A stretch of 64,000 nt of DNA from Chrysomallon squamiferum (GCA_012295275.1 CM022665.1:1550001-1614000), one strand, 5' to 3'. Positions 13,237-38,199 are shown, counted from the first letter of the stretch. Numbers and translations: made by a program. Notes: generated by a model from the letters alone, not told the origin.

Positions 13237-13606
13237 GGTGGATAGATGGTAGATGATAACAGACAGGTAAACTGATAGACAGAAGAAAGGTAGACAGATT
13301 ATAGAAAGATAGATAGATGTAAGGAGCCATGAGTTTATACTGCACAGCTGTCAGAACGATTGACTCTGTTGCTTATGTATATGGCATAAATAGATAGATA
13401 AATAGATATATTTATAGATAGATAAATAGATAGAAAAAATGTATTTAAATATTTAAAAAGGATGTAAATAGAGAGAGTGTATATGTACGTGTGTGTGTGT
13501 TTGTTCAATATATACTTGTGGTATGTATAACTGAGAAGGTGAGATAGACTGATACCGGGATAGTCAGACATCGTTTCAGAGATAGATTGACATGTTAGGT
13601 AGACAA

Positions 13607-13644
<38 letters not shown>

Positions 13645-14340: not shown

Positions 14341-15134
14341 TTGGGAAAGTAATAAATGGAAAATAGGAGGGAGTTATGGACATAAAGGTTTTCAATTATT
14401 TTAAGCAATTACTTTTCAGACATTGTCACATTCTTAACCAATACGGTCCTCATTGTAGGTCCATGGATTGAGTGATATATCGATCGAAGTTGGCTTAATC
14501 TATAAACTGTATGATGACAAATATATGGAGTTAGGAGGGAGGCATGACTGGAGGTACCAAAAAATCGTTATTGTTTATGAAGAGAACATTAATCTGGAAA
14601 TCTAGTCTCTGTTTGTCTACACTGAAAGCATAGTCGTCATCTATTGATACGAAGTAAATATGATAAGATACAAAGATGTCTGTAACAGTTTGTGTTAATC
14701 ACAGAACCTGTAATACTTAATTATCAATTAATATCTGGTAAAATGAAATAATCCATCTAATTAGAGTAATCTGGGGAGTGACACAGAGAGTAAGAAAGCC
14801 AGAGGGAAATATTTATATGTCATAACTTATTCTTAAGTACATACACTTCTGTCTATGCTCTGTTGGCCTGTCTGTCTATCTGTATATAGAAAGGGCTTTC
14901 AAATTAATGGCACTGTATTCGAAATTAGAAAAAGTAGCAATACCCTGTGTATCCATCTGTTCACCTATCTTCAGTAACTATCTCTGTCTGTCTGTACGTA
15001 TATCTATTTATCTATCATAATTTATCTATCTGTCTATTTAACCAATTAAATGTTATTATATTAATGTACTAATTAGCCATTCCCTTTGGAAATGTTGCCA
15101 CCCCTACACCACGGTGAGGTTCAGTACACGTAGG

Positions 15135-15525
15135 GGATGTTAGTAATGGTTAGTATTTGTTAAATGTTAGTATTTGGTTAATGGTTAGTATTTTGTTAAT
15201 AGTTACTATTTGTTAAATGTTAGTATTTGCTTAATGGTTAGTATTTGTTAAAAATTAGTATTTGGTTAATGGTTAGTATTTTGTTAATAGTTAGTATTTG
15301 TTAAATATTAGTATTTGGTTAATGGTTAGTATTTGGTTAATGGTTTTGTTAATTGTTAGTATTTGGTTAATGGTTAGTATTTGTTAAATGTTAGTATTTG
15401 GTTAATTGTTAATATTTTCTTAATGGTTAGTATTTGTTAAACATTAGTATTTGGTTAATGGTTACTATTTTGTTAATGGTTAGTATTTGTTAAATTTTAG
15501 TATTTGGTTAATGGTTAGAATTTGT
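15135..15525. repeat. 17-18-bp minisatellite (TTAGTATTTGGTTAATGG / TTAGTATTTGTTAAATG)
   Basis: About 20 tandem copies, with scattered extra copies to about 15870. Confidence 0.9.
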
Positions 15526-15556
15526 TTTAATTATAAAATAATATGTGCGTATGTGA

Positions 15557-15557
<1 letters not shown>

Positions 15558-15600
<43 letters not shown>
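15558..15600. repeat. (TG)n microsatellite
   Basis: Direct inspection. Confidence 0.95.
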
Positions 15601-15603
<3 letters not shown>

Positions 15604-16172
15604 TGTTTATACACGTATTCAGATAAGTATGTGGTAATTATTAGTAATTGTAACTAATTGGTTAAGGTTAGTATTTGTTAAATGTTAGTATGTTTGTGTG
15701 TGAGTGTATATATGTTTGTATATATGTTAGTGTAGTTCTGTGTGTGTTCTGTCTGTATGGATATTCGTATGTGTCTGTATGGATGTATGTGTGTGTCTCT
15801 ATATAACGTTTACTACCTGGTTAATGGTTAGTATTCATGTTAATTGTTAGTATTTTGGTTGCATGTTAGTACTTATTAATTAAAAAACAATACAAACCTG
15901 AGCCCACCTCTCAAGGGTTATGGAGCTGCAAGGAGCATAACCAGCTTCACGTCAACATCATCAACACAATCTCCTATAGCACTGATATGCTGGGGCAAAA
16001 GGGACAGAATGTTATTATCACTGCAGATATTACCAACTTCAAATAAATATTTTACAAATAAATGTCTGTATCTATTACTGTTACTATCATCATCATAAAA
16101 TAAAAAATGACAGAAGGATGCCAGCTGAAGTTAAAGCAATACACCTAGAGTAACGTTGTAAGGTTTCTAATA

Positions 16173-17075
16173 TTACACAAATCCTAGTAAACGACCTATC
16201 AGAAGACAAAATTCAATTAGAACAAATAAGATTTTCCACAACAGAGAACTAAATATACGACTAAAATACGTAAATATACGACCGATATACGCAAATATAC
16301 GTCTGATGAATCCAGCTGCAGAATGTCGTCTGACTCTTCTGACTCTTTTGACTCTGAGAGGTGGCAATGTGTACATCTCGCAGTTTCCATCTCTTAAGTT
16401 GTACACGATGGCGGTGAATCTTGCAGAGCAAACTGGACAATTTCTTCTGCTTCTAGACCACCTCTCCAAACAGCTGAAACAAAATTCATGTAAACACGAG
16501 TCTGCATGACACTTATCTAAAAATTCTTCTGAACACAAAGAACAAGTAGGTGACTTATCTGATTCAGGCTGTTGTGTTGATTCAGCAGTGCTGGGTGATG
16601 GTGATGTTGACATCCCTGGTCTTTCTCCACATGCTGCTTTTACAGGGTCACGTTCGGAAATCTTTCGCCCTTTTGGAGGCTTCTCTGGGCACCCATCATC
16701 CTGTGCTTTCCGTTTCCTAGATGTTGATGTCCCTGGTCCTCTACGTGATGTTTCTCCAGGGTCACGTTCGGAAATCTTTCGCCCTTTTGGAGGCTTCTTC
16801 GGGCACCCATCATCCTGTGCTTTCCGTTTCCTAGATGTTGATGTCCCTGGTCCTCTACGTGATGTTTCTCCAGGGTCACGTTCGGAAATCTTTCGCCCTT
16901 TTGGAGGCTTCTTCGGGCACCCATCATCCTGTGCTTTCCGTTTCCTAGATGTTGTTGTCCCTGGTCCTCTACGTGATGTTTCTCCAGGTTCGGAAATCTT
17001 TCGCCCTTTTGGAGGCTTTTCAGGGCACTCATCATCCTGTGCTTTCCTTTTCTTGGACGCTCTTACTTTTCCCAT
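16173..17075 (-). CDS. Single-exon C3HC4 RING finger protein, TOPORS-like putative E3 ligase, 300 aa
   Basis: CSLC-x12-CLHEFCFSCLERWSRSRRNCPVC followed by SARFTAIVYNLRDGNCEMYTLPP, resembling the TOPORS RING and its post-RING segment; four ~40-aa K/R-rich repeats at the N-terminus; hydrophobic C-terminus; GC-richer than flanks. Confidence 0.8.
   Translation of the reverse strand: MGKVRASKKRKAQDDECPEKPPKGRKISEPGETSRRGPGTTTSRKRKAQDDGCPKKPPKGRKISERDPGETSRRGPGTSTSRKRKAQDDGCPKKPPKGRKISERDPGETSRRGPGTSTSRKRKAQDDGCPEKPPKGRKISERDPVKAACGERPGMSTSPSPSTAESTQQPESDKSPTCSLCSEEFLDKCHADSCLHEFCFSCLERWSRSRRNCPVCSARFTAIVYNLRDGNCEMYTLPPLRVKRVRRVRRHSAAGFIRRIFAYIGRIFTYFSRIFSSLLWKILFVLIEFCLLIGRLLGFV
16643..17052 (-). 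repeat. Coding 120-bp tandem repeat (about 3.5 copies) inside the RING gene
   Basis: Unit encodes RKRKAQDDGCPKKPPKGRKISERDPGETSRRGPGTSTS-like peptide; copies nearly identical, first copy 6 bp shorter. Confidence 0.95.
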
Positions 17076-17430
17076 TTCGTATTGATAACTGCAATAACAT
17101 TGTAGGAGAAAACAAAATTATATATAATCCAAAAATATCTATTAAATTTATTTCTGTTGTTAGAACTATTTCTATTTTTATTTTATTTTTTAATGGCAGT
17201 ACATTTTTTTTTATTGTACGTTTTATCTGTTTGTTTTACTAACGTTAATCTTTGCACAAGGATTTCACAACCAGGGCTAATGTTCACATAATGAACATAT
17301 AGCTTGGAACTTTGCATGAATTTATTACATAATGTGAGTTTCGCGTTTAAAATGACAGGTGTACAGGGTTTAAATTGTTTGTGGATGGTGATTTTAAAAA
17401 TACATTCAAAATAAATTAAAATCTATTATC

Positions 17431-17431
<1 letters not shown>

Positions 17432-17476
<45 letters not shown>
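17432..17476. repeat. (CA)n microsatellite
   Basis: Direct inspection. Confidence 0.95.
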
Positions 17477-17479
<3 letters not shown>

Positions 17480-17897
17480 TTAAGGTTTATATGTTATGTG
17501 ATTTCATATCATGAAATTTATTATTTTATTTATATATTTTGAATTTTTGGGGTTTTATTGTGTCATACCTTTTAAAACTTACGTTTATATTTCAAGTATT
17601 GTTATTATCAGTGTTACTTTTTCTTTATCTATATTATTGTTCTTGTTGCTTTTTGTTGTTGGAGGAGTTGTTAGGTACTGAAAAAAGTGATTTTCAGTTT
17701 AGGAAATACAAGGTTGAGTAACTTTTTATCCTGATTTCAGAAACAAAATATTTAAAATTGTTAGTCAAATTGTTCCAAAGTTTTGGATTTTTTAATATTG
17801 CCATTTTGAAGAAAACGTTTTATAGGCTCCTTTCATAATATGTCAACTGTGTCTTCCAAACTCTGCTAAAATTTATTTACATATAAAGTTGGCAAAA

Positions 17898-18219
17898 TCA
17901 ACCAGATGGTCGGATGTCCCAAAAACGCGAAGAATCACCGCAGGATTACCTCCCAGCATTTGCTAGTGCTAGCTCAGTTTACACACAAGCACGTGGCGAA
18001 TACTGAGAAAAAATATGCCTGCGATTACGTTTCGAAAGATGCGCGTAGAAGAGTTGTGAAGTAAAGCTCATCCGATACTCTCCCAGCATTTGCTAGTGCT
18101 AGCAGAACGTGAAACGCCAGCACAACCAAATACAAGCAAAGTACTGATGATGTCTTTCTCTTAATGTACGTAATGCGTAACTTTTCGTCATTTCGTCGTC
18201 TACTTGCGACGGCGATGTT
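17898..18219 (-). repeat. 322-bp inverted copy of part of the array unit, containing hairpins H2 and H3 on the minus strand; pairs with 18386-18707
   Basis: Reverse complement of AACATCGCC...CCATCTGGTTGA; CTCCCAGCATTTGCTAGTGCTA at 17950-17971 and 18080-18101. Confidence 0.95.
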
Positions 18220-19427
18220 CACATTTAGTTTTCTTCAACAGAAACTGTACGAGACAATTTCCTGATATGTTATTTCACGAGCACGAAACAAATACCAGAA
18301 CGTATTTGTTTCGTGCTCGTGACGTAAAACACAACTAGCACTAGCAAATGCTGGAGGTTTATCGAATAGACAGCTGCGCTTCCGAAACATCGCCGTCGCA
18401 AGTAGACGACGAAATGACGAAAAGTTACGCATTACGTACATTAAGAGAAAGACATCATCAGTACTTTGCTTGTATTTGGTTGTGCTGGCGTTTCACGTTC
18501 TGCTAGCACTAGCAAATGCTGGGAGAGTATCGGATGAGCTTTACTTCACAACTCTTCTACGCGCATCTTTCGAAACGTAATCGCTGGCATATTTTTTCTC
18601 AGTATTCGCCACGTGCTTGTGTGTAAACTGAGCTAGCACTAGCAAATGCTGGGAGGTAATCCTGCGGTGATTCTTCGCGTTTTTGGGACATCCGACCATC
18701 TGGTTGAAAGCCTTTCCTTTTTAGCTAAATTATGCTCAAACCGCTACCAGATCACAGAAGACACCACTCAAATTTATTTACGACCATCACGTCCTTAATA
18801 CTTTGCTAGTATTTCTTGGTGCTGGCGTTTCACGTCTTGTTAGCACTAGCAAATGCTGGGAGAGTATAGTACGAAATGCACTTCAACAACGATACCTTTT
18901 GAGCGAAGTAATGCTGTTTCCGCAAACAGATCACAAAAGCAGTCAGATTTATTTAGGACGACTACATCGTTAGCACTCTGCTAGCATTTCTTTGTGCTGG
19001 TGTGTCACAAAGTACTAGCACTAGCAAATGCTGGGAGAGTATAGTACGAAATGCACTTCAACAACGATACGTAAACTGCACGGCCATCATTTCGTTCGTA
19101 ATCCGTTTTTTTTTTTTTTTTTTTCTTTAAAAGCGCTTGGTAATTTGAATTTTCGACGTCGAAATTTCTAATTAGTCCAATTAAGTAAACAATGCTTGAT
19201 GTTTCAACCAAGTGATAACTAGCGGTTGTCAATGAGTCAATTCAAAATTCATTCACTCTCACTGTCAGCTCACTGCCTCATTTACGAAGTATAAGTAATT
19301 TCAGATACTTCTAATATCGTTGCAGATGCAGGCGTCGTCTCCAGTCACATCAGCTTTCAGGTATTATTTGCTTTTCTTCACATTTAGTTTTCTTCAACAG
19401 AAACTGTACGAGACAATTTCCTGATAT

Positions 19428-19516
19428 GTTATTTCTAAACGTTCTGGTATTTGTTTCGTGCTCGTGACGTAAAACACAACTAGCACTAGCAAATGCTGGA
19501 GGTTTATCGAATAGAC
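19428..19516 (+). ncRNA. Pre-miRNA-like hairpin H1 (representative copy); mature candidate 19481-19502 UAGCACUAGCAAAUGCUGGAGG
   Basis: 5' arm TTCTGGTATTTGTTTCGTGCTCG pairs with the 3' arm; lower stem TAAAC/GTTTA; CTAC 17 nt after the arm. Confidence 0.75.
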
Positions 19517-19597
19517 AGCTACGCTTCCGAAACATCGCCGTCGCAAGTAGACGACGAAATGACGAAAACTTACGCATTACGTACATTAAGAGAAAGA

Positions 19598-19681
19598 CAT
19601 CATCAGTACTTTGTTTGTATTTGGTTGTGCTGGCGTTTCACGTTCTGCTAGCACTAGCAAATGCTGGGAGAGTATCGGATG
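19598..19681 (+). ncRNA. Pre-miRNA-like hairpin H2 (representative); mature candidate 19649-19670 UAGCACUAGCAAAUGCUGGGAG
   Basis: TACTTTGYTTGTATTTGGTTGTGCTGGCG - loop TTTCACGTTC - TGCTAGCACTAGCAAATGCTGGGAGAGTA; CTTC 19 nt after the arm. Confidence 0.78.
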
Positions 19682-19726
19682 AGCTTTACTTCACAACTCT
19701 TCTACGCGCATCTTTCGAAACGTAAT

Positions 19727-19813
19727 CGCAGGCATATTTTTTTTCTCAGTATTCGCCACGTGCTTGTGTGTAAACTGAGCTAGCACTAGCAAATGCTGGG
19801 AGGTAATCCTGCG
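19727..19813 (+). ncRNA. Pre-miRNA-like hairpin H3 (representative); mature candidate 19781-19802
   Basis: TTTCTCAGTATTCGCCACGTGCTTGT pairs with GCTAGCAC...GGGAGG; basal CGCAGG/CCTGCG; apical UGUG; CTTC 18 nt after the arm. Confidence 0.78.
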
Positions 19814-19935
19814 GTGATTCTTCGCGTTTTTGGGACATCCGACCATCTGGTTGAAAGCCTTTCCTTTTAGCTAAATTATGCTCAAACCGCTACCAGATCA
19901 CAGAAGACACCACTCAAATTTATTTACGACCATCA

Positions 19936-20019
19936 CGTCCTTAATACTTTGCTAGTATTTCTTGGTGCTGGCGTTTCACGTCTTGTTAGCACTAGCAAAT
20001 GCTGGGAGAGTATAGTACG
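19936..20019 (+). ncRNA. Pre-miRNA-like hairpin H4 (representative); mature candidate 19987-20008
   Basis: ATACTTTGCTAGTATTTCTTGGTGCTGGCG - loop TTTCACGTCT - TGTTAGCACTAGCAAATGCTGGGAGAGTAT; CTTC 19 nt after the arm. Confidence 0.78.
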
Positions 20020-20112
20020 AAATGCACTTCAACAACGATACCTTTTGAGCGAAGTAATGCTGTTTCCGCAAACAGATCACAAAAGCAGTCAGATTTATTT
20101 AGGACGACTACA

Positions 20113-20195
20113 TCGTTAGCACTCTGCTAGCATTTCTTTGTGCTGGTGTGTCACAAAGTACTAGCACTAGCAAATGCTGGGAGAGTATAGTACGA
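20113..20195 (+). ncRNA. Pre-miRNA-like hairpin H5 (representative); mature candidate 20162-20183
   Basis: ACTCTGCTAGCATTTCTTTGTGCTGGTG - loop TGTCACAAAG - TACTAGCACTAGCAAATGCTGGGAGAGT; basal TCGT/ACGA; apical UGUG; CTTC 19 nt after the arm. Confidence 0.78.
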
Positions 20196-20249
20196 AATGC
20201 ACTTCAACAACGATACGTAAACTGCACGGCCATCATTTCGTTCGTAATC

Positions 20250-20500
20250 CGTTTTTTTTTCTTTAAAAGCGCTTGGTAATTTGAATTTTCGACGTCGAAA
20301 TTTCTAATTAGTCCAATTAAGTAAACAATGCTTGATGTTTCAACCAAGTGATAACTAGCGGTTGTCAATGAGTCAATTCAAAATTCATTCACTCACTGTC
20401 AGCTCACTGCCCATTTACGAAGTATAAGTAATTTCAGATACTTCTAATATCGTTGCAGATGCAGGCGTCGTCTCCAGTCACATCAGCTTTCAGGTATTAT
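20250..20500 (+). promoter_or_regulatory. Hairpin-free spacer of each unit, candidate per-unit promoter (representative copy)
   Basis: T-tract 20252-20264, palindrome TTTCGACGTCGAAA 20287-20300, CCAAT about 20313, TGAGTCA 20369-20375, TATAAGTA 20423-20430, upstream of H1; motif-level evidence only. Confidence 0.35.
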
Positions 20501-23500
20501 TTGCTTTTCTTCACATTTAGTTTTCTTCAACAGAAACTGTACGAGACAATTTCCTGATATGTTATTTCTAAACGTTCTGGTATTTGTTTCGTGCTCGTGA
20601 CGTAAAACACAACTAGCACTAGCAAATGCTGGAGGTTTATCGAATAGACAGCTACGCTTCCGAAACATCGCCGTCGCAAGTAGACGACGAAATGACGAAA
20701 ACTTACGCATTACGTACATTAAGAGAAAGACATCATCAGTACTTTGCTTGTATTTGGTTGTGCTGGCGTTTCACGTTCTGCTAGCACTAGCAAATGCTGG
20801 GAGAGTATCGGATGAGCTTTACTTCACAACTCTTCTACGCGCATCTTTCGAAACGTAATCGCAGGCATATTTTTTCTCAGTATTCGCCACGTGCTTGTGT
20901 GTAAACTGAGCTAGCACTAGCAAATGCTGGGAGGTAATCCTGCGGTGATTCTTCGCGTTTTTGGGACATCCGACCATCTGGTTGAAAGCCTTTCCTTTTT
21001 AGCTAAATTATGCTCAAACCGCTACCAGATCACAGAAGACACCACTCAAATTTATTTACGACCATCACGTCCTTAATACTTTGCTAGTATTTCTTGGTGC
21101 TGGCGTTTCACGTCTTGTTAGCACTAGCAAATGCTGGGAGAGTATAGTACGAAATGCACTTCAACAACGATACCTTTTGAGCGAAGTAATGCTGTTTCCG
21201 CAAACAGATCACAAAAAGCAGTCAGATTTATTTAGGACGACTACATCGTTAGCACTCTGCTAGCATTTCTTTGTGCTGGTGTGTCACAAAGTACTAGCAC
21301 TAGCAAATGCTGGGAGAGTATAGTACGAAATGCACTTCAACAACGATACGTAAACTGCACGGCCATCATTTCGTTCGTAATCCGTTTTTTTTTTTTTTAA
21401 AAGCGCTTGGTAATTTGAATTTTCGACGTCGAAATTTCTAATTAGTCCAATTAAGTAAACAATGCTTGATGTTTCAACCAAGTGATAACTAGCGGTTGTC
21501 AATGAGTCAATTCAAAATTCATTCACTCACTGTCAGTCAGCTCACTGCCTCATTTACGAAGTATAAGTAATTTCAGATACTTCTAATATCGTTGCAGATG
21601 CAGGCGTCGTCTCCAGTCACATCAGCTTTCAGGTATTATTTGCTTTTCTTCACATTTAGTTTTCTTCAACAGAAACTGTACGAGACAATTTCCTGATATG
21701 TTATTTCTAAACGTTCTGGTATTTGTTTCGTGCTCGTGACGTAAAACACAACTAGCACTAGCAAATGCTGGAGGTTTATCGAATAGACAGCTACGCTTCC
21801 GAAACATCGCCGTCGCAAGTAGACGACGAAATGACGAAAACTTACGCATTACGTACATTAAGAGAAAGACATCATCAGTACTTTGTTTGTATTTGGTTGT
21901 GCTGGCGTTTCACGTTCTGCTAGCACTAGCAAATGCTGGGAGAGTATCGGATGAGCTTTACTTCACAACTCTTCTACGCGCATCTTTCGAAACGTAATCG
22001 CAGGCATATTTTTTCTCAGTATTCGCCACGTGCTTGTGTGTAAACTGAGCTAGCACTAGCAAATGCTGGGAGGTAATCCTGCGGTGATTCTTCGCGTTTT
22101 TGGGACATCCGACCATCTGGTTGAAAGCCTTTCCTTTTAGCTAAATTATGCTCAAACCGCTACCAGATCACAGAAGACACCACTCAAATTTATTTACGAC
22201 CATCACGTCCTTAATACTTTGCTAGTATTTCTTGGTGCTGGCGTTTCACGTCTTGTTAGCACTAGCAAATGCTGGGAGAGTATAGTACGAAATGCACTTC
22301 AACAACGATACCTTTTGAGCGAAGTAATGCTGTTTCCGCAAACAGATCACAAAAGCAGTCAGATTTATTTAGGACGACTACATCGTTAGCACTCTGCTAG
22401 CATTTCTTTGTGCTGGTGTGTCACAAAGTACTAGCACTAGCAAATGCTGGGAGAGTATAGTACGAAATGCACTTCAACAACGATACGTAAACTGCACGGC
22501 CATCATTTCGTTCGTAATCCGTTTTTTTTTTTTCTTTAAAAGCGCTTGGTAATTTGAATTTTCGACGTCGAAATTTCTAATTAGTCCAATTAAGTAAACA
22601 ATGCTTGATGTTTCAACCAAGTGATAACTAGCGGTTGTCAATGAGTCAATTCAAAATTCATTCACTCACTGTCAGCTCACTGCCTCATTTACGAAGTATA
22701 AGTAATTTCAGATACTTCTAATATCGTTGCAGATGCAGGCGTCGTCTCCAGTCACATCAGCTTTCAGGTATTATTTGCTTTTCTTCACATTTAGTTTTCT
22801 TCAACAGAAACTGTACGAGACAATTTCCTGATATGTTATTTCTAAACGTTCTGGTATTTGTTTCGTGCTCGTGACGTAAAACACAACTAGCACTAGCAAA
22901 TGCTGGAGGTTTATCGAATAGACAGCTACGCTTCCGAAACATCGCCGTCGCAAGTAGACGACGAAATGACGAAAACTTACGCATTACGTACATTAAGAGA
23001 AAGACATCATCAGTACTTTGTTTGTATTTATTGTTGTGCTGGCGTTTCACGTTCTGCTAGCACTAGCAAATGCTGGGAGAGTATCGGATGAGCTTTACTT
23101 CACAACTCTTCTACGCGCATCTTTCGAAACGTAATCGCAGGCATATTTTTTCTCAGTATTCGCCACGTGCTTGTGTGTAAACTGAGCTAGCACTAGCAAA
23201 TGCTGGGAGGTAATCCTGCGGTGATTCTTCGCGTTTTTGGGACATCCGACCATCTGGTTGAAAGCCTTTCCTTTTAGCTAAATTATGCTCAAACCGCTAC
23301 CAGATCACAGAAGACACCACTCAAATTTATTTACGACCATCACGTCCTTAATACTTTGCTAGTATTTCTTGGTGCTGGCGTTTCACGTCTTGTTAGCACT
23401 AGCAAATGCTGGGAGAGTATAGTACGAAATGCACTTCAACAACGATACCTTTTGAGCGAAGTAATGCTGTTTCCGCAAACAGATCACAAAAAGCAGTCAG

Positions 23501-26500
23501 ATTTATTTAGGACGACTACATCGTTAGCACTCTGCTAGCATTTCTTTGTGCTGGTGTGTCACAAAGTACTAGCACTAGCAAATGCTGGGAGAGTATAGTA
23601 CGAAATGCACTTCAACAACGATACGTAAACTGCACGGCCATCATTTCGTTCGTAATCCGTTTTTTTTCTTCTTTAAAAGCGCTTGGTAATTTGAATTTTC
23701 GACGTCGAAATTTCTAATTAGTCCAATTAAGTAAACAATGCTTGATGTTTCAACCAAGTGATAACTAGCGGTTGTCAATGAGTCAATTCAAAATTCATTC
23801 ACTCACTGTCAGCTCACTGCCCTCATTTACGAAGTATAAGTAATTTCAGATACTTCTAATATCGTTGCAGATGCAGGCGTCGTCTCCAGTCACATCAGCT
23901 TTCAGGTATTATTTGCTTTTCTTCACACATTTAGTTTTCTTCAACAGAAACTGTACGAGACAATTTCCTGATATGTTATTTCTAAACGTTCTGGTATTTG
24001 TTTCGTGCTCGTGACGTAAAACACAACTAGCACTAGCAAATGCTGGAGGTTTATCGAATAGACAGCTACGCTTCCGAAACATCGCCGTCGCAAGTAGACG
24101 ACGAAATGACGAAAACTTACGCATTACGTACATTAAGAGAAAGACATCATCAGTACTTTGTTTGTATTTGGTTGTGCTGGCGTTTCACGTTCTGCTAGCA
24201 CTAGCAAATGCTGGGAGAGTATCGGATGAGCTTTACTTCACAACTCTTCTACGCGCATCTTTCGAAACGTAATCGCAGGCATATTTTTTTCTCAGAATTC
24301 GCCACGTGCTTGTGTGTAAACTGAGCTAGCACTAGCAAATGCTGGGAGGTAATCCTGCGGTGATTCTTCGCGTTTTTGGGACATCCGACCATCTGGTTGA
24401 AAGCCTTTCCTTTTTAGCTAAATTATGCTCAAACCGCTACCAGATCACAGAAGACACCACTCAAATTTATTTACGACCATCACGTCCTTAATACTTTGCT
24501 AGTATTTCTTGGTGCTGGCGTTTCACGTCTTGTTAGCACTAGCAAATGCTGGGAGAGTATAGTACGAAATGCACTTCAACAACGATACCTTTTGAGCGAA
24601 GTAATGCTGTTTCCGCAAACAGATCACAAAAGCAGTCAGATTTATTTAGGACGACTACATCGTTAGCACTCTGCTAGCATTTCTTTGTGCTGGTGTGTCA
24701 CAAAGTACTAGCACTAGCAAATGCTGGGAGAGTATAGTACGAAATGCACTTCAACAACGATACGTAAACTGCACGGCCATCATTTCGTTCGTAATCCGTT
24801 TTTTTTTTTTTTCTTTAAAAGCGCTTGGTAATTTGAATTTTCGACGTCGAAATTTCTAATTAGTCCAATTAAGTAAACAATGCTTGATGTTTCAACCAAG
24901 TGATAACTAGCGGTTGTCAATGAGTCAATTCAAAATTCATTCACTCACTGTCAGCTCACTGCCCCATTTACGAAGTATAAGTAATTTCAGATACTTCTAA
25001 TATCGTTGCAGATGCAGGCGTCGTCTCCAGTCACATCAGCTTTCAGGTATTATTTGCTTTTCTTCACATTTAGTTTTCTTCAACAGAAACTGTACGAGAC
25101 AATTTCCTGATATGTTATTTCTAAACGTTCTGGTATTTGTTTCGTGCTCGTGACGTAAAACACAACTAGCACTAGCAAATGCTGGAGGTTTATCGAATAG
25201 ACAGCTACGCTTCCGAAACATCGCCGTCGCAAGTAGACGACGAAATGACGAAAACTTACGCATTACGTACATTAAGAGAAAGACATCATCAGTACTTTGC
25301 TTGTATTTGGTTGTGCTGGCGTTTCACGTTCTGCTAGCACTAGCAAATGCTGGGAGAGTATCGGATGAGCTTTACTTCACAACTCTTCTACGCGCATCTT
25401 TCGAAACGTAATCGCAGGCATATTTTTTCAGTATTCGCCACGTGCTTGTGTGTAAACTGAGCTAGCACTAGCAAATGCTGGGAGGTAATCCTGCGGTGAT
25501 TCTTCGCGTTTTTGGGACATCCGACCATCTGGTTGAAAGCCTTTCCTTTTTAGCTAAATTATGCTCAAACCGCTACCAGATCACAGAAGACACCACTCAA
25601 ATTTATTTACGACCATCACGTCCTTAATACTTTGCTAGTATTTCTTGGTGCTGGCGTTTCACGTCTTGTTAGCACTAGCAAATGCTGGGAGAGTATAGTA
25701 CGAAATGCACTTCAACAACGATACCTTTTGAGCGAAGTAATGCTGTTTCCGCAAACAGATCACAAAAAGCAGTCAGATTTATTTAGGACGACTACATCGT
25801 TAGCACTCTGCTAGCATTTCTTTGTGCTGGTGTGTCACAAAGTACTAGCACTAGCAAATGCTGGGAGAGTATAGTACGAAATGCACTTCAACAACGATAC
25901 GTAAACTGCACGGCCATCATTTCGTTCGTAATCCGTTTTTTTTTCTTTAAAAGCGCTTGGTAATTTGAATTTTCGACGTCGAAATTTCTAATTAGTCCAA
26001 TTAAGTAAACAATGCTTGATGTTTCAACCAAGTGATAACTAGCGGTTGTCAATGAGTCAATTCAAAATTCATTCACTCACTGTCAGCTCACTGCCCCATT
26101 TACGAAGTATAAGTAATTTCAGATACTTCTAATATCGTTGCAGATGCAGGCGTCGTCTCCAGTCACATCAGCTTTCAGGTATTATTTGCTTTTCTTCACA
26201 TTTAGTTTTCTTCAACAGAAACTGTACGAGACAATTTCCTGATATGTTATTTCTAAACGTTCTGGTATTTGTTTCGTGCTCGTGACGTAAAACACAACTA
26301 GCACTAGCAAATGCTGGAGGTTTATCGAATAGACAGCTACGCTTCCGAAACATCGCCGTCGCAAGTAGACGACGAAATGACGAAAACTTACGCATTACGT
26401 ACATTAAGAGAAAGACATCATCAGTACTTTGTTTGTATTTGGTTGTGCTGGCGTTTCACGTTCTGCTAGCACTAGCAAATGCTGGGAGAGTATCGGATGA

Positions 26501-29500
26501 GCTTTACTTCACAACTCTTCTACGCGCATCTTTCGGAAACGTAATCGCAGGCATATTTTTCTCAGTATTCGCCACGTGCTTGTGTGTAAACTGAGCTAGC
26601 ACTAGCAAATGCTGGGAGGTAATCCTGCGGTGATTCTTCGCGTTTTGGGACATCCGACCATCTGGTTGAAAGCCTTTCCTTTTAGCTAAATTATGCTCAA
26701 ACCGCTACCAGATCACAGAAGACACCACTCAAATTTATTTACGACCATCACGTCCTTAATACTTTGCTAGTATTTCTTGGTGCTGGCGTTTCACGTCTTG
26801 TTAGCACTAGCAAATGCTGGGAGAGTATAGTACGAAATGCACTTCAACAACGATACCTTTTGAGCGAAGTAATGCTGTTTCCGCAAACAGATCACAAAAG
26901 CAGTCAGATTTATTTAGGACGACTACATCGTTAGCACTCTGCTAGCATTTCTTTGTGCTGGTGTGTCACAAAGTACTAGCACTAGCAAATGCTGGGAGAG
27001 TATAGTACGAAATGCACTTCAACAACGATACGTAAACTGCACGGCCATCATTTCGTTCGTAATCCGTTTTTTTTTTTTTTTTAAAAGCGCTTGGTAATTT
27101 GAATTTTCGACGTCGAAATTTCTAATTAGTCCAATTAAGTAAACAATGCTTGATGTTTCAACCAAGTGATAACTAGCGGTTGTCAATGAGTCAATTCAAA
27201 ATTCATTCACTCACTGTCAGCTCACTGCCTCATTTACGAAGTATAAGTAATTTCAGATACTTCTAATATCGTTGCAGATGCAGGCGTCGTCTCCAGTCAC
27301 ATCAGCTTTCAGGTATTATTTGCTTTTCTTCACATTTAGTTTTCTTCAACAGAAACTGTACGAGACAATTTCCTGATATGTTATTTCTAAACGTTCTGGT
27401 ATTTGTTTCGTGCTCGTGACGTAAAACACAACTAGCACTAGCAAATGCTGGAGGTTTATCGAATAGACAGCTACGCTTCCGAAACATCGCCGTCGCAAGT
27501 AGACGACGAAATGACGAAAACTTACGCATTACGTACATTAAGAGAAAGACATCATCAGTACTTTGTTTGTATTTGGTTGTGCTGGCGTTTCACGTTCTGC
27601 TAGCACTAGCAAATGCTGGGAGAGTATCGGATGAGCTTTACTTCACAACTCTTCTACGCGCATCTTTCGAAACGTAATCGCAGGCATATTTTTTCAGTAT
27701 TCGCCACGTGCTTGTGTGTAAACTGAGCTAGCACTAGCAAATGCTGGGAGGTAATCCTGCGGTGATTCTTCGCGTTTTTGGGACATCCGACCATCTGGTT
27801 GAAAGCCTTTCCTTTTAGCTAAATTATGCTCAAACCGCTACCAGATCACAGAAGACACCACTCAAATTTATTTACGACCATCACGTCCTTAATACTTTGC
27901 TAGTATTTCTTGGTGCTGGCGTTTCACGTCTTGTTAGCACTAGCAAATGCTGGGAGAGTATAGTACGAAATGCACTTCAACAACGATACCTTTTGAGCGA
28001 AGTAATGCTGTTTCCGCAAACAGATCACAAAAAAGCAGTCAGATTTATTTAGGACGACTACATCGTTAGCACTCTGCTAGCATTTCTTTGTGCTGGTGTG
28101 TCACAAAGTACTAGCACTAGCAAATGCTGGGAGAGTATAGTACGAAATGCACTTCAACAACGATACGTAAACTGCACGGCCATCATTTCGTTCGTAATCC
28201 GTTTTTTTTTTTTTTTTAAAAGCGCTTGGTAATTTGAATTTTCGACGTCGAAATTTCTAATTAGTCCAATTAAGTAAACAATGCTTGATGTTTCAACCAA
28301 GTGATAACTAGCGGTTGTCAATGAGTCAATTCAAAATTCATTCACTCACTGTCAGCTCACTGCCTCATTTACGAAGTATAAGTAATTTCAGATACTTCTA
28401 ATATCGTTGCAGATGCAGGCGTCGTCTCCAGTCACATCAGCTTTCAGGTATTATTTGCTTTTCTTCACATTTAGTTTTCTTCAACAGAAACTGTACGAGA
28501 CAATTTCCTGATATGTTATTTCTAAACGTTCTGGTATTTGTTTCGTGCTCGTGACGTAAAACACAACTAGCACTAGCAAATGCTGGAGGTTTATCGAATA
28601 GACAGCTACGCTTCCGAAACATCGCCGTCGCAAGTAGACGACGAAATGACGAAAACTTACGCATTACGTACATTAAGAGAAAGACATCATCAGTACTTTG
28701 CTTGTATTTGGTTGTGCTGGCGTTTCACGTTCTGCTAGCACTAGCAAATGCTGGGAGAGTATCGGATGAGCTTTACTTCACAACTCTTCTACGCGCATCT
28801 TTCGAAACGTAATCGCAGGCATATTTTTTTTTTTCAGTATTCGCCACGTGCTTGTGTGTAAACTGAGCTAGCACTAGCAAATGCTGGGAGGTAATCCTGC
28901 GGTGATTCTTCGCGTTTTTTGGGACATCCGACCATCTGGTTGAAAGCCTTTCCTTTTTAGCTAAATTATGCTCAAACCGCTACCAGATCACAGAAGACAC
29001 CACTCAAATTTATTTACGACCATCACGTCCTTAATACTTTGCTAGTATTTCTTGGTGCTGGCGTTTCACGTCTTGTTAGCACTAGCAAATGCTGGGAGAG
29101 TATAGTACGAAATGCACTTCAACAACGATACCTTTTGAGCGAAGTAATGCTGTTTCCGCAAACAGATCACAAAAAGCAGTCAGATTTATTTAGGACGACT
29201 ACATCGTTAGCACTCTGCTAGCATTTCTTTGTGCTGGTGTGTCACAAAGTACTAGCACTAGCAAATGCTGGGAGAGTATAGTACGAAATGCACTTCAACA
29301 ACGATACGTAAACTGCACGGCCATCATTTCGTTCGTAATCCGTTTTTTTTCTTTTTTAAAAGCGCTTGGTAATTTGAATTTTCGACGTCGAAATTTCTAA
29401 TTAGTCCAATTAAGTAAACAATGCTTGATGTTTCAACCAAGTGATAACTAGCGGTTGTCAATGAGTCAATTCAAAATTCATTCACTCACTGTCAGCTCAC

Positions 29501-32500
29501 TGCCTCATTTACGAAGTATAAGTAATTTCAGATACTTCTAATATCGTTGCAGATGCAGGCGTCGTCTCCAGTCACATCAGCTTTCAGGTATTATTTGCTT
29601 TTCTTCACATTTAGTTTTCTTCAACAGAAACTGTACGAGACAATTTCCTGATATGTTATTTCTAAACGTTCTGGTATTTGTTTCGTGCTCGTGACGTAAA
29701 ACACAACTAGCACTAGCAAATGCTGGAGGTTTATCGAATAGACAGCTACGCTTCCGAAACATCGCCGTCGCAAGTAGACGACGAAATGACGAAAACTTAC
29801 GCATTACGTACATTAAGAGAAAGACATCATCAGTACTTTGCTTGTATTTGGTTGTGCTGGCGTTTCACGTTCTGCTAGCACTAGCAAATGCTGGGAGAGT
29901 ATCGGATGAGCTTTACTTCACAACTCTTCTACGCGCATCTTTCGAAACGTAATCGCAGGCATATTTTTCTCAGTATTCGCCACGTGCTTGTGTGTAAACT
30001 GAGCTAGCACTAGCAAATGCTGGGAGGTAATCCTGCGGTGATTCTTCGCGTTTTTGGGACATCCGACCATCTGGTTGAAAGCCTTTCCTTTTAGCTAAAT
30101 TATGCTCAAACCGCTACCAGATCACAGAAGACACCACTCAAATTTATTTACGACCATCACGTCCTTAATACTTTGCTAGTATTTCTTGGTGCTGGCGTTT
30201 CACGTCTTGTTAGCACTAGCAAATGCTGGGAGAGTATAGTACGAAATGCACTTCAACAACGATACCTTTTGAGCGAAGTAATGCTGTTTCCGCAAACAGA
30301 TCACAAAAGCAGTCAGATTTATTTAGGACGACTACATCGTTAGCACTCTGCTAGCATTTCTTTGTGCTGGTGTGTCACAAAGTACTAGCACTAGCAAATG
30401 CTGGGAGAGTATAGTACGAAATGCACTTCAACAACGATACGTAAACTGCACGGCCATCATTTCGTTCGTAATCCGTTTTTTTTTCTTTAAAAGCGCTTGG
30501 TAATTTGAATTTTCGACGTCGAAATTTCTAATTAGTCCAATTAAGTAAACAATGCTTGATGTTTCAACCAAGTGATAACTAGCGGTTGTCAATGAGTCAA
30601 TTCAAAATTCATTCACTCTCACTGTCAGCTCACTGCCTCATTTACGAAGTATAAGTAATTTCAGATACTTCTAATATCGTTGCAGATGCAGGCGTCGTCT
30701 CCAGTCACATCAGCTTTCAGGTATTATTTGCTTTTCTTCACATTTAGTTTTCTTCAACAGAAACTGTACGAGACAATTTCCTGATATGTTATTTCTAAAC
30801 GTTCTGGTATTTGTTTCGTGCTCGTGACGTAAAACACAACTAGCACTAGCAAATGCTGGAGGTTTATCGAATAGACAGCTACGCTTCCGAAAACATCGCC
30901 GTCGCAAGTAGACGACGAAATGACGAAAACTTACGCATTACGTACATTAAGAGAAAGACATCATCAGTACTTTGTTTGTATTTGGTTGTGCTGGCGTTTC
31001 ACGTTCTGCTAGCACTAGCAAATGCTGGGAGAGTATCGGATGAGCTTTACTTCACAACTCTTCTACGCGCATCTTTCGAAACGTAATCGCAGGCATATTT
31101 TTTTCTCAGTATTCGCCACGTGCTTGTGTGTAAACTGAGCTAGCACTAGCAAATGCTGGGAGGTAATCCTGCGGTGATTCTTCGCGTTTTGGGACATCCG
31201 ACCATCTGGTTGAAAGCCTTTCCTTTTAGCTAAATTATGCTCAAACCGCTACCAGATCACAGAAGACACCACTCAAATTTATTTACGACCATCACGTCCT
31301 TAATACTTTGCTAGTATTTCTTGGTGCTGGCGTTTCACGTCTTGTTAGCACTAGCAAATGCTGGGAGAGTATAGTACGAAATGCACTTCAACAACGATAC
31401 CTTTTGAGCGAAGTAATGCTGTTTCCGCAAACAGATCACAAAAGCAGTCAGATTTATTTAGGACGACTACATCGTTAGCACTCTGCTAGCATTTCTTTGT
31501 GCTGGTGTGTCACAAAGTACTAGCACTAGCAAATGCTGGGAGAGTATAGTACGAAATGCACTTCAACAACGATACGTAAACTGCACGGCCATCATTTCGT
31601 TCGTAATCCGTTTTTTTTTTTTTTTTTAAAAGCGCTTGGTAATTTGAATTTTCGACGTCGAAATTTCTAATTAGTCCAATTAAGTAAACAATGCTTGATG
31701 TTTCAACCAAGTGATAACTAGCGGTTGTCAATGAGTCAATTCAAAATTCATTCACTCTCACTGTCAGCTCACTGCCTCATTTACGAAGTATAAGTAATTT
31801 CAGATACTTCTAATATCGTTGCAGATGCAGGCGTCGTCTCCAGTCACATCAGCTTTCAGGTATTATTTGCTTTTCTTCACATTTAGTTTTCTTCAACAGA
31901 AACTGTACGAGACAATTTCCTGATATGTTATTTCTAAACGTTCTGGTATTTGTTTCGTGCTCGTGACGTAAAACACAACTAGCACTAGCAAATGCTGGAG
32001 GTTTATCGAATAGACAGCTACGCTTCCGAAACATCGCCGTCGCAAGTAGACGACGAAATGACGAAAACTTACGCATTACGTACATTAAGAGAAAGACATC
32101 ATCAGTACTTTGCTTGTATTTGGTTGTGCTGGCGTTTCACGTTCTGCTAGCACTAGCAAATGCTGGGAGAGTATCGGATGAGCTTTACTTCACAACTCTT
32201 CTACGCGCATCTTTCGAAACGTAATCGCAGGCATATTTTTTTTCTCAGTATTCGCCACGTGCTTGTGTGTAAACTGAGCTAGCACTAGCAAATGCTGGGA
32301 GGTAATCCTGCGGTGATTCTTCGCGTTTTTGGGACATCCGACCATCTGGTTGAAAGCCTTTCCTTTTTAGCTAAATTATGCTCAAACCGCTACCAGATCA
32401 CAGAAGACACCACTCAAATTTATTTACGACCATCACGTCCTTAATACTTTGCTAGTATTTCTTGGTGCTGGCGTTTCACGTCTTGTTAGCACTAGCAAAT

Positions 32501-35500
32501 GCTGGGAGAGTATAGTACGAAATGCACTTCAACAACGATACCTTTTGAGCGAAGTAATGCTGTTTCCGCAAACAGATCACAAAAGCAGTCAGATTTATTT
32601 AGGACGACTACATCGTTAGCACTCTGCTAGCATTTCTTTGTGCTGGTGTGTCACAAAGTACTAGCACTAGCAAATGCTGGGAGAGTATAGTACGAAATGC
32701 ACTTCAACAACGATACGTAAACTGCACGGCCATCATTTCGTTCGTAATCCGTTTTTTTTTTTTTTTTTAAAAGCTTGGTAATTTGAATTTTCGACGTCGA
32801 AATTTCTAATTAGTCCAATTAAGTAAACAATGCTTGATGTTTCAACCAAGTGATAACTAGCGGTTGTCAATGAGTCAATTCAAAATTCATTCACTCTCAC
32901 TGTCAGCTCACTGCCTCATTTACGAAGTATAAGTAATTTCAGATACTTCTAATATCGTTGCAGATGCAGGCGTCGTCTCCAGTCACATCAGCTTTCAGGT
33001 ATTATTTGCTTTTCTTCACATTTAGTTTTCTTCAACAGAAACTGTACGAGACAATTTCCTGATATGTTATTTCTAAACGTTCTGGTATTTGTTTCGTGCT
33101 CGTGACGTAAAACACAACTAGCACTAGCAAATGCTGGAGGTTTATCGAATAGACAGCTACGCTTCCGAAACATCGCCGTCGCAAGTAGACGACGAAATGA
33201 CGAAAACTTACGCATTACGTACATTAAGAGAAAGACATCATCAGTACTTTGCTTGTATTTGGTTGTGCTGGCGTTTCACGTTCTGCTAGCACTAGCAAAT
33301 GCTGGGAGAGTATCGGATGAGCTTTACTTCACAACTCTTCTACGCGCATCTTTCGAAACGTAATCGCAGGCATATTTTTTCTCAGTATTCGCCACGTGCT
33401 TGTGTGTAAACTGAGCTAGCACTAGCAAATGCTGGGAGGTAATCCTGCGGTGATTCTTCGCGTTTTTGGGACATCCGACCATCTGGTTGAAAGCCTTTCC
33501 TTTTAGCTAAATTATGCTCAAACCGCTACCAGATCACAGAAGACACCACTCAAATTTATTTACGACCATCACGTCCTTAATACTTTGCTAGTATTTCTTG
33601 GTGCTGGCGTTTCACGTCTTGTTAGCACTAGCAAATGCTGGGAGAGTATAGTACGAAATGCACTTCAACAACGATACCTTTTGAGCGAAGTAATGCTGTT
33701 TCCGCAAACAGATCACAAAAAGCAGTCAGATTTATTTAGGACGACTACATCGTTAGCACTCTGCTAGCATTTCTTTGTGCTGGTGTGTCACAAAGTACTA
33801 GCACTAGCAAATGCTGGGAGAGTATAGTACGAAATGCACTTCAACAACGATACGTAAACTGCACGGCCATCATTTCGTTCGTAATCCGTTTTTTTTCTTC
33901 TTTAAAAGCGCTTGGTAATTTGAATTTTCGACGTCGAAATTTCTAATTAGTCCAATTAAGTAAACAATGCTTGATGTTTCAACCAAGTGATAACTAGCGG
34001 TTGTCAATGAGTCAATTCAAAATTCATTCACTCTCACTGTCAGCTCACTGCCTCATTTACGAAGTATAAGTAATTTCAGATACTTCTAATATCGTTGCAG
34101 ATGCAGGCGTCGTCTCCAGTCACATCAGCTTTCAGGTATTATTTGCTTTTCTTCACATTTAGTTTTCTTCAACAGAAACTGTACGAGACAATTTCCTGAT
34201 ATGTTATTTCTAAACGTTCTGGTATTTGTTTCGTGCTCGTGACGTAAAACACAACTAGCACTAGCAAATGCTGGAGGTTTATCGAATAGACAGCTACGCT
34301 TCCGAAACATCGCCGTCGCAAGTAGACGACGAAATGACGAAAACTTACGCATTACGTACATTAAGAGAAAGACATCATCAGTACTTTGCTTGTATTTGGT
34401 TGTGCTGGCGTTTCACGTTCTGCTAGCACTAGCAAATGCTGGGAGAGTATCGGATGAGCTTTACTTCACAACTCTTCTACGCGCATCTTTCGAAACGTAA
34501 TCGCAGGCATATTTTTTTCAGTATTCGCCACGTGCTTGTGTGTAAACTGAGCTAGCACTAGCAAATGCTGGGAGGTAATCCTGCGGTGATTCTTCGCGTT
34601 TTTGGGACATCCGACCATCTGGTTGAAAGCCTTTCCTTTTTAGCTAAATTATGCTCAAACCGCTACCAGATCACAGAAGACACCACTCAAATTTATTTAC
34701 GACCATCACGTCCTTAATACTTTGCTAGTATTTCTTGGTGCTGGCGTTTCACGTCTTGTTAGCACTAGCAAATGCTGGGAGAGTATAGTACGAAATGCAC
34801 TTCAACAACGATACCTTTTGAGCGAAGTAATGCTGTTTCCGCAAACAGATCACAAAAGCAGTCAGATTTATTTAGGACGACTACATCGTTAGCACTCTGC
34901 TAGCATTTCTTTGTGCTGGTGTGTCACAAAGTACTAGCACTAGCAAATGCTGGGAGAGTATAGTACGAAATGCACTTCAACAACGATACGTAAACTGCAC
35001 GGCCATCATTTCGTTCGTAATCCGTTTTTTTTTTTTTTTTTCTTTAAAAGCGCTTGGTAATTTGAATTTTCGACGTCGAAATTTCTAATTAGTCCAATTA
35101 AGTAAACAATGCTTGATGTTTCAACCAAGTGATAACTAGCGGTTGTCAATGAGTCAATTCAAAATTCATTCACTCTCACTGTCAGCTCACTGCCTCATTT
35201 ACGAAGTATAAGTAATTTCAGATACTTCTAATATCGTTGCAGATGCAGGCGTCGTCTCCAGTCACATCAGCTTTCAGGTATTATTTGCTTTTCTTCACAT
35301 TTAGTTTTCTTCAACAGAAACTGTACGAGACAATTTCCTGATATGTTATTTCTAAACGTTCTGGTATTTGTTTCGTGCTCGTGACGTAAAACACAACTAG
35401 CACTAGCAAATGCTGGAGGTTTATCGAATAGACAGCTACGCTTCCGAAACATCGCCGTCGCAAGTAGACGACGAAATGACGAAAACTTACGCATTACGTA

Positions 35501-38199
35501 CATTAAGAGAAAGACATCATCAGTACTTTGCTTGTATTTGGTTGTGCTGGCGTTTCACGTTCTGCTAGCACTAGCAAATGCTGGGAGAGTATCGGATGAG
35601 CTTTACTTCACAACTCTTCTACGCGCATCTTTCGAAACGTAATCGCAGGCATATTTTTTCAGTATTCGCCACGTGCTTGTGTGTAAACTGAGCTAGCACT
35701 AGCAAATGCTGGGAGGTAATCCTGCGGTGATTCTTCGCGTTTTTGGGACATCCGACCATCTGGTTGAAAGCCTTTCCTTTTAGCTAAATTATGCTCAAAC
35801 CGCTACCAGATCACAGAAGACACCACTCAAATTTATTTACGACCATCACGTCCTTAATACTTTGCTAGTATTTCTTGGTGCTGGCGTTTCACGTCTTGTT
35901 AGCACTAGCAAATGCTGGGAGAGTATAGTACGAAATGCACTTCAACAACGATACCTTTTGAGCGAAGTAATGCTGTTTCCGCAAACAGATCACAAAAAGC
36001 AGTCAGATTTATTTAGGACGACTACATCGTTAGCACTCTGCTAGCATTTCTTTGTGCTGGTGTGTCACAAAGTACTAGCACTAGCAAATGCTGGGAGAGT
36101 ATAGTACGAAATGCACTTCAACAACGATACGTAAACTGCACGGCCATCATTTCGTTCGTAATCCGTTTTTTTTTTTTTTAAAAGCGCTTGGTAATTTGAA
36201 TTTTCGACGTCGAAATTTCTAATTAGTCCAATTAAGTAAACAATGCTTGATGTTTCAACCAAGTGATAACTAGCGGTTGTCAATGAGTCAATTCAAAATT
36301 CATTCACTCTCACTGTCAGCTCACTGCCTCATTTACGAAGTATAAGTAATTTCAGATACTTCTAATATCGTTGCAGATGCAGGCGTCGTCTCCAGTCACA
36401 TCAGCTTTCAGGTATTATTTGCTTTTCTTCACATTTAGTTTTCTTCAACAGAAACTGTACGAGACAATTTCCTGATATGTTATTTCTAAACGTTCTGGTA
36501 TTTGTTTCGTGCTCGTGACGTAAAACACAACTAGCACTAGCAAATGCTGGAGGTTTATCGAATAGACAGCTACGCTTCCGAAACATCGCCGTCGCAAGTA
36601 GACGACGAAATGACGAAAACTTACGCATTACGTACATTAAGAGAAAGACATCATCAGTACTTTGCTTGTATTTGGTTGTGCTGGCGTTTCACGTTCTGCT
36701 AGCACTAGCAAATGCTGGGAGAGTATCGGATGAGCTTTACTTCACAACTCTTCTACGCGCATCTTTCGAAACGTAATCGCAGGCATATTTTTTCTCAGTA
36801 TTCGCCACGTGCTTGTGTGTAAACTGAGCTAGCACTAGCAAATGCTGGGAGGTAATCCTGCGGTGATTCTTCGCGTTTTTGGGACATCCGACCATCTGGT
36901 TGAAAGCCTTTCCTTTTTAGCTAAATTATGCTCAAACCGCTACCAGATCACAGAAGACACCACTCAAATTTATTTACGACCATCACGTCCTTAATACTTT
37001 GCTAGTATTTCTTGGTGCTGGCGTTTCACGTCTTGTTAGCACTAGCAAATGCTGGGAGAGTATAGTACGAAATGCACTTCAACAACGATACCTTTTGAGC
37101 GAAGTAATGCTGTTTCCGCAAACAGATCACAAAAGCAGTCAGATTTATTTAGGACGACTACATCGTTAGCACTCTGCTAGCATTTCTTTGTGCTGGTGTG
37201 TCACAAAGTACTAGCACTAGCAAATGCTGGGAGAGTATAGTACGAAATGCACTTCAACAACGATACGTAAACTGCACGGCCATCATTTCGTTCGTAATCC
37301 GTTTTTTTTTTTTTTTCTTTAAAAGCGCTTGGTAATTTGAATTTTCGACGTCGAAATTTCTAATTAGTCCAATTAAGTAAACAATGCTTGATGTTTCAAC
37401 CAAGTGATAACTAGCGGTTGTCAATGAGTCAATTCAAAATTCATTCACTCTCACTGTCAGCTCACTGCCTCATTTACGAAGTATAAGTAATTTCAGATAC
37501 TTCTAATATCGTTGCAGATGCAGGCGTCGTCTCCAGTCACATCAGCTTTCAGGTATTATTTGCTTTTCTTCACATTTAGTTTTCTTCAACAGAAACTGTA
37601 CGAGACAATTTCCTGATATGTTATTTCTAAACGTTCTGGTATTTGTTTCGTGCTCGTGACGTAAAACACAACTAGCACTAGCAAATGCTGGAGGTTTATC
37701 GAATAGACAGCTACGCTTCCGAAACATCGCCGTCGCAAGTAGACGACGAAATGACGAAAACTTACGCATTACGTACATTAAGAGAAAGACATCATCAGTA
37801 CTTTGCTTGTATTTGGTTGTGCTGGCGTTTCACGTTCTGCTAGCACTAGCAAATGCTGGGAGAGTATCGGATGAGCTTTACTTCACAACTCTTCTACGCG
37901 CATCTTTCGAAACGTAATCGCAGGCATATTTTTTCTCAGTATTCGCCACGTGCTTGTGTGTAAACTGAGCTAGCACTAGCAAATGCTGGGAGGTAATCCT
38001 GCGGTGATTCTTCGCGTTTTTGGGACATCCGACCATCTGGTTGAAAGCCTTTCCTTTTTAGCTAAATTATGCTCAAACCGCTACCAGATCACAGAAGACA
38101 CCACTCAAATTTATTTACGACCATCACGTCCTTAATACTTTGCTAGTATTTCTTGGTGCTGGCGTTTCACGTCTTTTTAGCACTAGCAACTGCAATGTA

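Follow-up and report, generated by a model that had tools for sequence, protein, structure and literature searches.

A tandem array of hairpins with predicted promoters in Chrysomallon squamiferum, a candidate microRNA locus for maternal mRNA clearance

The window analyzed here is a stretch of 64,000 nucleotides (nt) from Chrysomallon squamiferum (GCA_012295275.1 CM022665.1:1550001-1614000). It contains a tandem array of ∼1137-bp units, in which five different hairpins share one 3′ arm. This is a real, conserved array of very probable microRNA genes, which in its predicted working resembles, by analogy, zebrafish miR-430 and the multicopy clusters of Tribolium. Our preferred interpretation, to which we assign a probability of roughly two-thirds, is that the array is transcribed unit by unit, yields a single 3′-arm (3p) microRNA with the seed AGCACUA, is switched on at zygotic activation, and clears maternal mRNAs. 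Clearance of maternal mRNA by unrelated microRNAs has been described in fish, frogs, and insects.

Anatomy of the array

The shared arm contains a 19-mer with 88 exact matches on the + strand and two on the − strand, against 0 expected from 100 shuffles; copies with one or two mismatches were not found in the window. The forward copies sit in five upstream contexts, the hairpin classes H1–H5, with 18, 18, 18, 17, and 17 copies, respectively. Spacing from one H1 to the next gives 17 periods of 1132–1145 bp (mean 1137). Together with one truncated copy, these counts reproduce those of a first-pass annotation made from the sequence, as do the five classes per unit. A covariance model (R1) detected no further hairpin copies in 1–17897 or 39300–64000.

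The units are 99.8% identical (0.24% substitutions, 14 of 1162 columns with a substitution), and another 33 columns differ by gaps only, 15 of them in homopolymers. A C/T variant in the star arm of H2 divides the 18 units 11 to 7. The repeat is real, and its copy number is given as assembled. At least half of the unit's words are contained in 11 of the 24 sequencing runs listed (20 holders, 12 studies), and the head-to-tail joint between units is present in contigs from two of the four runs compared with the window. Runs X12, X15, and X16 contain just near-identical pieces at depth 2–4; these probably come from the species of the window itself and were not counted as relatives. A small share of the unit's words is also contained in a vent-metagenome run (X20).

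At its left end, the array carries two nested fold-backs of 322 and 29 nt (window 17898–18707), and the left fold-back includes a variant private to unit 1. These fold-backs may be a trace of the array's origin, a source of long double-stranded RNA (dsRNA), or a long-read artefact. The array is also CpG-rich, with an observed/expected ratio of 1.22 at a GC content of ∼40% (flanks 0.23–0.69; related contig L001, see below, 0.25), possibly reflecting lack of germ-line methylation or the effect of GC-biased conversion, restricted to this species.

Hairpins as microRNA precursors

The array hairpins are very probably paralogous microRNA genes with one predicted ∼22-nt 3p product. When folded on the + strand, every one of the five classes forms a hairpin whose 3′ arm is the 19-mer; compared with 300 dinucleotide shuffles, z is −3.1 to −5.0. 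On the − strand, only H3 (z −3.2) and H5 (z −2.1) score. The five window classes were combined with ten hairpins of the metagenome contig L001 into a set of 15. In each of these, 18–20 of the 22 arm bases are paired, and the z score on the + strand (−1.7 to −6.2) lies below that on the − strand. A CNNC motif follows the 22-nt arm at a distance of 16–19 nt in 13 of the 15 hairpins (background 0.09–0.19), or in 8 of 9 classes (p ∼1e-5 if independent); we take this distance, counted from an assumed 22-nt arm, to be the position of the Microprocessor motif. Loops of 12–15 nt and precursors of ∼58–60 nt place the hairpins of both arrays within the limits used here for canonical mollusc microRNAs (loop of at least 7–8 nt, precursor <80 nt). 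MirGeneDB 3.0 gives 19 ± 1.6 paired arm bases and a median loop of 15 nt for 3p microRNAs (PMC11701709).

Identity among the five window classes is 1.00 over arm bases 1–17, 0.71 in the star arm, 0.43 in the loop, and 0.35–0.44 in the flanks. The first-pass annotation had described an invariant 3′ arm with preserved pairing amid diverged surroundings and had expected the hairpins to be more stable than shuffled controls, and both statements hold. Its proposal of paralogous microRNA hairpins with one 3p product agrees with the structure, the CNNC position, and the conservation across species; these findings, together with the oyster homologues, also support its idea of a dosage-amplified microRNA locus. 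From the predicted seed, the target site in 3′ untranslated regions (3′ UTRs) would be UAGUGCU. Rfam returned 0 matches at the gathering score in the window and, when E values as high as 10 were admitted, a few nonspecific hairpin models scoring far below their thresholds (unit, 1; L001, 25).

Related arrays in other species

L001 is the sole match among the metagenome contigs of the Joint Genome Institute (JGI). It is 1767 bp long and has a 155-nt terminal repeat, and therefore represents a collapsed tandem unit of ∼1614 bp. Its ten hairpins are organized as one plus three triplets, and arm bases 1–17 are invariant in all ten. Between the window and L001, identity is 1.00 over these bases, 0.74 in the star arm, 0.45 in the loop, and 0.35–0.39 in the flanks. 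Judged by its sequence, L001 is a homologous array of another species.

In run X17, contigs with a depth of ∼24–560 are confined to hairpins. The summed depth, which is not a copy number, reaches 2e4–8e4 on arm bins and 0–6 on most spacer bins. All 11 substitutions listed in the high-depth contigs fall in terminal loops, and the flanks of the hairpin contigs are loose ends that are unlike the window and, by eye, differ from L001 also. The X17 hairpins appear to be a third type, suggesting that separate species have such arrays. In one X17 contig, at window position 20769, the 3′ arm keeps the shared 3′ half and has another 5′ half (predicted seed AGUUGUG); this contig is possibly a seed-switched paralogue in that organism. 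Single matches to the arm in prokaryote genomes (4) and viral contigs (18) form no arrays and were taken as chance.

A promoter-like block in the units

Beyond what the first-pass annotation had noticed, the units carry a conserved, promoter-like block. It is present in 17 of the 18 units and absent ahead of the first five forward hairpins. The spacer block aligns with L001 at z 14.9, whereas all four inter-hairpin linkers tested score between z −1.3 and −0.1. Window and L001 have a common order of motifs: TAATTA, CCAAT, RTAAACA, CAAGTG, two TGTCA, a TATA-like motif (at 20423 in the window), and an initiator-like motif (at 20450). We infer promoter activity from the conservation of the block alone. 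The block likely provides one promoter per unit, which would correspond to the layout of zebrafish miR-430. A splice-donor-like site downstream of the block would make the hairpins intronic, and a polypyrimidine tract behind H5 is a possible splice acceptor.

Oyster homologues and their expression

The supplementary files s003 and s005 of a study on the Pacific oyster, Crassostrea gigas (PMC4138081), contain novel 3p microRNAs that form two clusters, m0314–m0317 and m0338–m0347, with four hairpins on one scaffold and six listed on another. By eye, m0342-3p and m0345-3p are identical to the array arm over bases 1–10 and thus have the exact seed; bases 2–7 are identical in m0314, m0316, m0317, m0342, m0345, and m0347, which use the same arm and register and have a similar star arm. 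Matches to the 22 arm bases (by eye) number 18 for m0342 and m0316, 17 for m0347, 16 for m0317, and 15 for m0314; the chance of an 18/22 match over 254 arms is ∼1e-5 to 2e-4. A further row picked up by the search, m0324, is an unrelated sequence with broad expression.

According to these files, the homologues have reads from both arms, with 22-nt products and star reads. In reads per million (RPM), m0317-3p amounts to 14 in egg, 287 in blastula, 374 and 140 in trochophore, and 37 in D-larva, and to 0 in all later stages and in eight organs including the female gonad. Values for m0314-3p in the same egg-to-D-larva samples are 14, 741, 297, 226, and 81, and later 0. Across the homologue rows, the female gonad has 0 reads except for a single read in one row, and eggs have 0–6 (PMC4138081).

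Because the oyster homologues are read only from blastula to D-larva, the array microRNA is likely expressed in the early embryo of C. squamiferum as well. Of the "early-embryo or germline" role put forward by the first-pass annotation, the oyster rows favor the former part and lend no support to the latter. Its term "lineage-specific" seems apt for the mega-array only and is unsupported for the family, which has clustered homologues in a bivalve. The family is likely old, shared by bivalves and gastropods, with the mega-array as a lineage amplification. The oyster authors label the m0314–m0347 group oyster-specific, and the main text of their paper contains neither "maternal" nor "miR-430" and does not name the host gene CGI_10025557 (PMC4138081). 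Seed terms had no match in the available supplements of PMC11067994, PMC7488030, and PMC12479628, which cover adult or juvenile tissues.

Comparison with known microRNA systems

The closest parallel in layout is zebrafish miR-430, whose head-to-tail units consist of a promoter with a TATA box and two or three hairpin triplets (bioRxiv 10.1101/2021.08.09.455629). Across fish species, the miR-430 hairpins and promoter are better conserved than the rest (PMC10417697), just as only hairpins and promoter-like block stay alike between the window and L001. The triplet sub-repeats recur in L001, in which the block is followed by one hairpin and three triplets. However, there is no sequence homology: the seed is AGCACUA here and AAGUGCU in miR-430 (PMC10417697), and the miR-430/427/302 seed family was ruled out by this difference and by the lack of an Rfam match. 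The array also makes one predicted mature sequence, whereas zebrafish has a, b, and c variants, and its assembled 20 kb comprise 17 blocks and 88 hairpins, compared with >300 promoters in ∼0.6 Mb, of which the zebrafish reference assembly had only 8 (bioRxiv 10.1101/2021.08.09.455629). A clearance function can be proposed here by analogy. Probably by coincidence, oyster m0316 and m0317 have a seed (AGCACUU) that is exactly the miR-430 seed in reverse complement.

The oyster group shares with the array the 3p arm and register, the clustering of paralogues, and a similar star arm, but forms small clusters of diverged paralogues, with no mega-array or per-unit promoter reported in the source files. 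Tribolium mir-3851 and mir-3836 and Drosophila mir-309~6 are multicopy clusters whose 3p products appear at zygotic activation and target maternal transcripts (PMC4691753). Their listed seeds are without AGCACU, and they are diverse paralogues in contrast to a homogenized array of promoters and hairpins.

Similar to Mir-29, the array arm begins with UAGCAC, and its seed is one base off that of oyster miR-29-3p. Mir-29 was nevertheless rejected as an identity by seed, since AGCACCA is required and base 7 differs, and an Rfam search with E values as high as 10 gave no mir-29 match. Moreover, the 3′ half is unlike, and reads of oyster miR-29 occur at every stage and in every organ. Descent of the array arm from Mir-29 is possible. 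A resemblance to miR-96 and a hammerhead ribozyme satellite were dismissed, both without an Rfam match, and so was a protein-coding role, for which a single 95-amino acid (aa) stop-to-stop frame on the − strand is without support.

The family may already have a name, for example in MirGeneDB or in mollusc microRNA surveys. Supplementary Table 1 of MirGeneDB 3.0 lists names by node without seeds, including the seven oyster-only families Mgi-NOVEL-2 to 8 and the two gastropod families MIR-12588 and MIR-1988, and also MIR-1984 and MIR-2722 (PMC11701709). A 15-mer of the arm is absent from the full texts of the literature searched, and the literature searches retrieved no mollusc array of such a kind and no spiralian clearance microRNA, although subscription papers or supplements may contain one.

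Proposed function and alternatives

In the mechanism that we favor, each 1.14-kb unit would be an RNA polymerase II transcription unit of its own, composed of the promoter-like block, a short first exon, and the five hairpins, and would be switched on at zygotic genome activation. Drosha and Dicer would process the five hairpins to one ∼22-nt 3p microRNA, which at high dose would clear maternal mRNAs that carry UAGUGCU sites in their 3′ UTRs; by analogy, this clearance is probably the main role of the array. Joint amplification of promoter and hairpins would allow a burst of a single microRNA during the short early cell cycles, and concerted evolution would hold the units nearly identical.

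Several observations weigh against this mechanism or limit the support for it. The names of the block motifs, including a Fox-like RTAAACA, are consensus labels that we presume to be apt. The TATA-like motif of the window is weak (TATAAG), and its distance to the initiator-like motif is unequal in the two arrays (29 versus 36 nt). Among 255 star-arm cells of the 15 hairpins, departures from Watson–Crick pairing comprise 41 G-U, 2 A-C, and 19 other cells, but counted as distinct position/pair types they are 6, 2, and 7, so that the G-U excess is small. In the alignment, 92.8% of cells are paired and 25 cells are changed on both sides, values that 0 of 500 shuffles reach, but the hairpins are related and these counts are therefore not independent; the number of pairs with changes on both sides (7) is unremarkable, as 122 of 500 shuffles reach it. 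The 24 sequencing runs listed include no small-RNA runs of this species. In two metatranscriptome runs of adult type, the share of the unit's words is 76% and 70%; these values are unreadable as expression, because DNA carry-over of a high-copy repeat would have the same effect. In the oyster files, read counts per stage are 1–13 for the exact-seed rows, which the authors discarded as having "too few reads." Their test for 2-nt overhangs was failed by m0316, and 8 reads already equal 113 RPM in the small egg library. Oyster expression also peaks from blastula to trochophore and continues to D-larva, which fits a larval role too (PMC4138081).

This last point leads to a less likely alternative, in which the array is a real early microRNA locus that targets zygotic transcripts for blastula and trochophore development, such as those of patterning or ciliated cells. 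In its favor, levels of the homologues in the trochophore equal or exceed those in the blastula, and reads persist to D-larva. Stable microRNAs, however, outlast their own transcription. Furthermore, miR-430 has been described with just such a layout, in which extreme dosage goes together with a promoter in every unit, and the multicopy early clusters of Tribolium target maternal transcripts.

Alternatively, a satellite may have captured an old microRNA cluster and been amplified by unequal crossing-over without selection for dose, leaving most copies silent or redundant. The 99.8% identity of the units points to recent amplification or homogenization, the oyster has just small clusters, and the first unit is without a block and the last one truncated. 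We nevertheless consider this origin improbable, since L001, likewise tandem, shares the block and the arm although its number of hairpins is another, and since the third hairpin type of run X17 suggests that the array state recurs across separate species. Still less credible is a source of PIWI-interacting RNAs (piRNAs), as in the Aedes satellite, or of endogenous small interfering RNAs from the left fold-back dsRNA, or a 19-mer that serves as a DNA-binding box of a satellite or mobile element. The near-perfect 322-nt inverted repeat would suit such a source, but strand-biased folding, CNNC position, and loop length fit Drosha and Dicer, and the oyster homologues are 22 nt long with star reads. 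Only a very slight chance is left to an assembly artefact in which a long-read assembler over-expanded a few true hairpins. Whereas the unit differences are mostly gaps, nearly half of them in homopolymers, and the left fold-back may stem from a chimeric read, the recovery of the unit's words and of its head-to-tail joint in other runs and the 11-to-7 division of the star-arm variant speak against an artefact, and the copy number could equally be under-assembled.

Under the clearance mechanism, the array provides a named candidate with a seed, a predicted promoter, and homologues in the Pacific oyster, for which accessible embryos and staged transcriptomes exist. Promoter-dense microRNA arrays, regarded as a fish trait, would then exist in a distant phylum too, and loci of this kind would escape notice when masked as "satellites." A more far-reaching version, which we offer tentatively and at somewhat less than even odds, is that an unrecognized family as old as the gastropod–bivalve split acts as a mollusc maternal-clearance factor, and that the snail lineage independently built a homogenized, promoter-dense, miR-430-like array, which three species or more have kept, which is switched on with the first zygotic wave, and which may nucleate a transcription body. 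If the family is such a factor, this would be the first locus of its kind in spiralians.

Sequence features and neighboring genes

Table 1. Features of the array, in window coordinates
Feature	Position	Strand	Remarks
Whole array	17898–38189	+	17 full ∼1137-bp periods and a last partial unit; 88 forward hairpins
Representative unit, 1134 bp	20290–21423	+	Head-to-tail joint also in contigs of runs X12 and X17
Promoter-like block, 150 nt, hairpin-free	20305–20454	+	Conserved with L001:78-230; 17 copies, 19169 to 37361
Splice-donor-like site CAG/GTA	20491–20496	+	17 copies; 42 nt past initiator-like site, versus 41 nt in L001
Hairpin H1	20577–20635	+	Predicted mature arm 20614–20635; loop 15 nt
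Hairpin H2	20746–20803	+	Predicted mature arm 20782–20803; loop 14 nt
Hairpin H3	20876–20933	+	Predicted mature arm 20912–20933; loop 13 nt
Hairpin H4	21083–21140	+	Predicted mature arm 21119–21140; loop 14 nt
Hairpin H5	21259–21316	+	Predicted mature arm 21295–21316; loop 14 nt
Polypyrimidine tract with terminal AG, behind each unit's H5	20243–20272	+	17 copies; no alignment with L001
Fold-back inverted copy (H2 and H3) of 18386–18707	17898–18219	−	321/322 nt identical; carries both inverted 19-mers
Small inversion, 29 nt	18275–18303	−	In place of the 5′ flank of the first H1
Truncated H4 arm	38178–38189	+	First 12 nt of the 19-mer; right end of the array

Judged by the flanking frames, the array lies between genes. 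A single frame for a C3HC4 RING finger with three to four 38-aa basic repeats (16173–17117, − strand) lies ∼0.8 kb from its left edge and is directed away from it. Farther left, an intronless frame resembles the prolyl 4-hydroxylase alpha subunit (7263–8663, − strand); its best named matches are molluscs, first the gastropod Gigantopelta with 45%, so that by this one protein search a gastropod host is likely. This frame stops short of the full catalytic domain (profile positions 1–69 of 98) and is likely a retrocopy, which may be frameshifted or truncated. The short intronless genes adjoining the array could be co-activated early. On the other side, exons of an axonemal-type dynein heavy chain (40781–63787, − strand) end ∼2.6 kb from the array. 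Two unrelated minisatellites lie at 678–1250 and 15144–15526, with periods of 42–43 bp and 18/35/53 bp, respectively.

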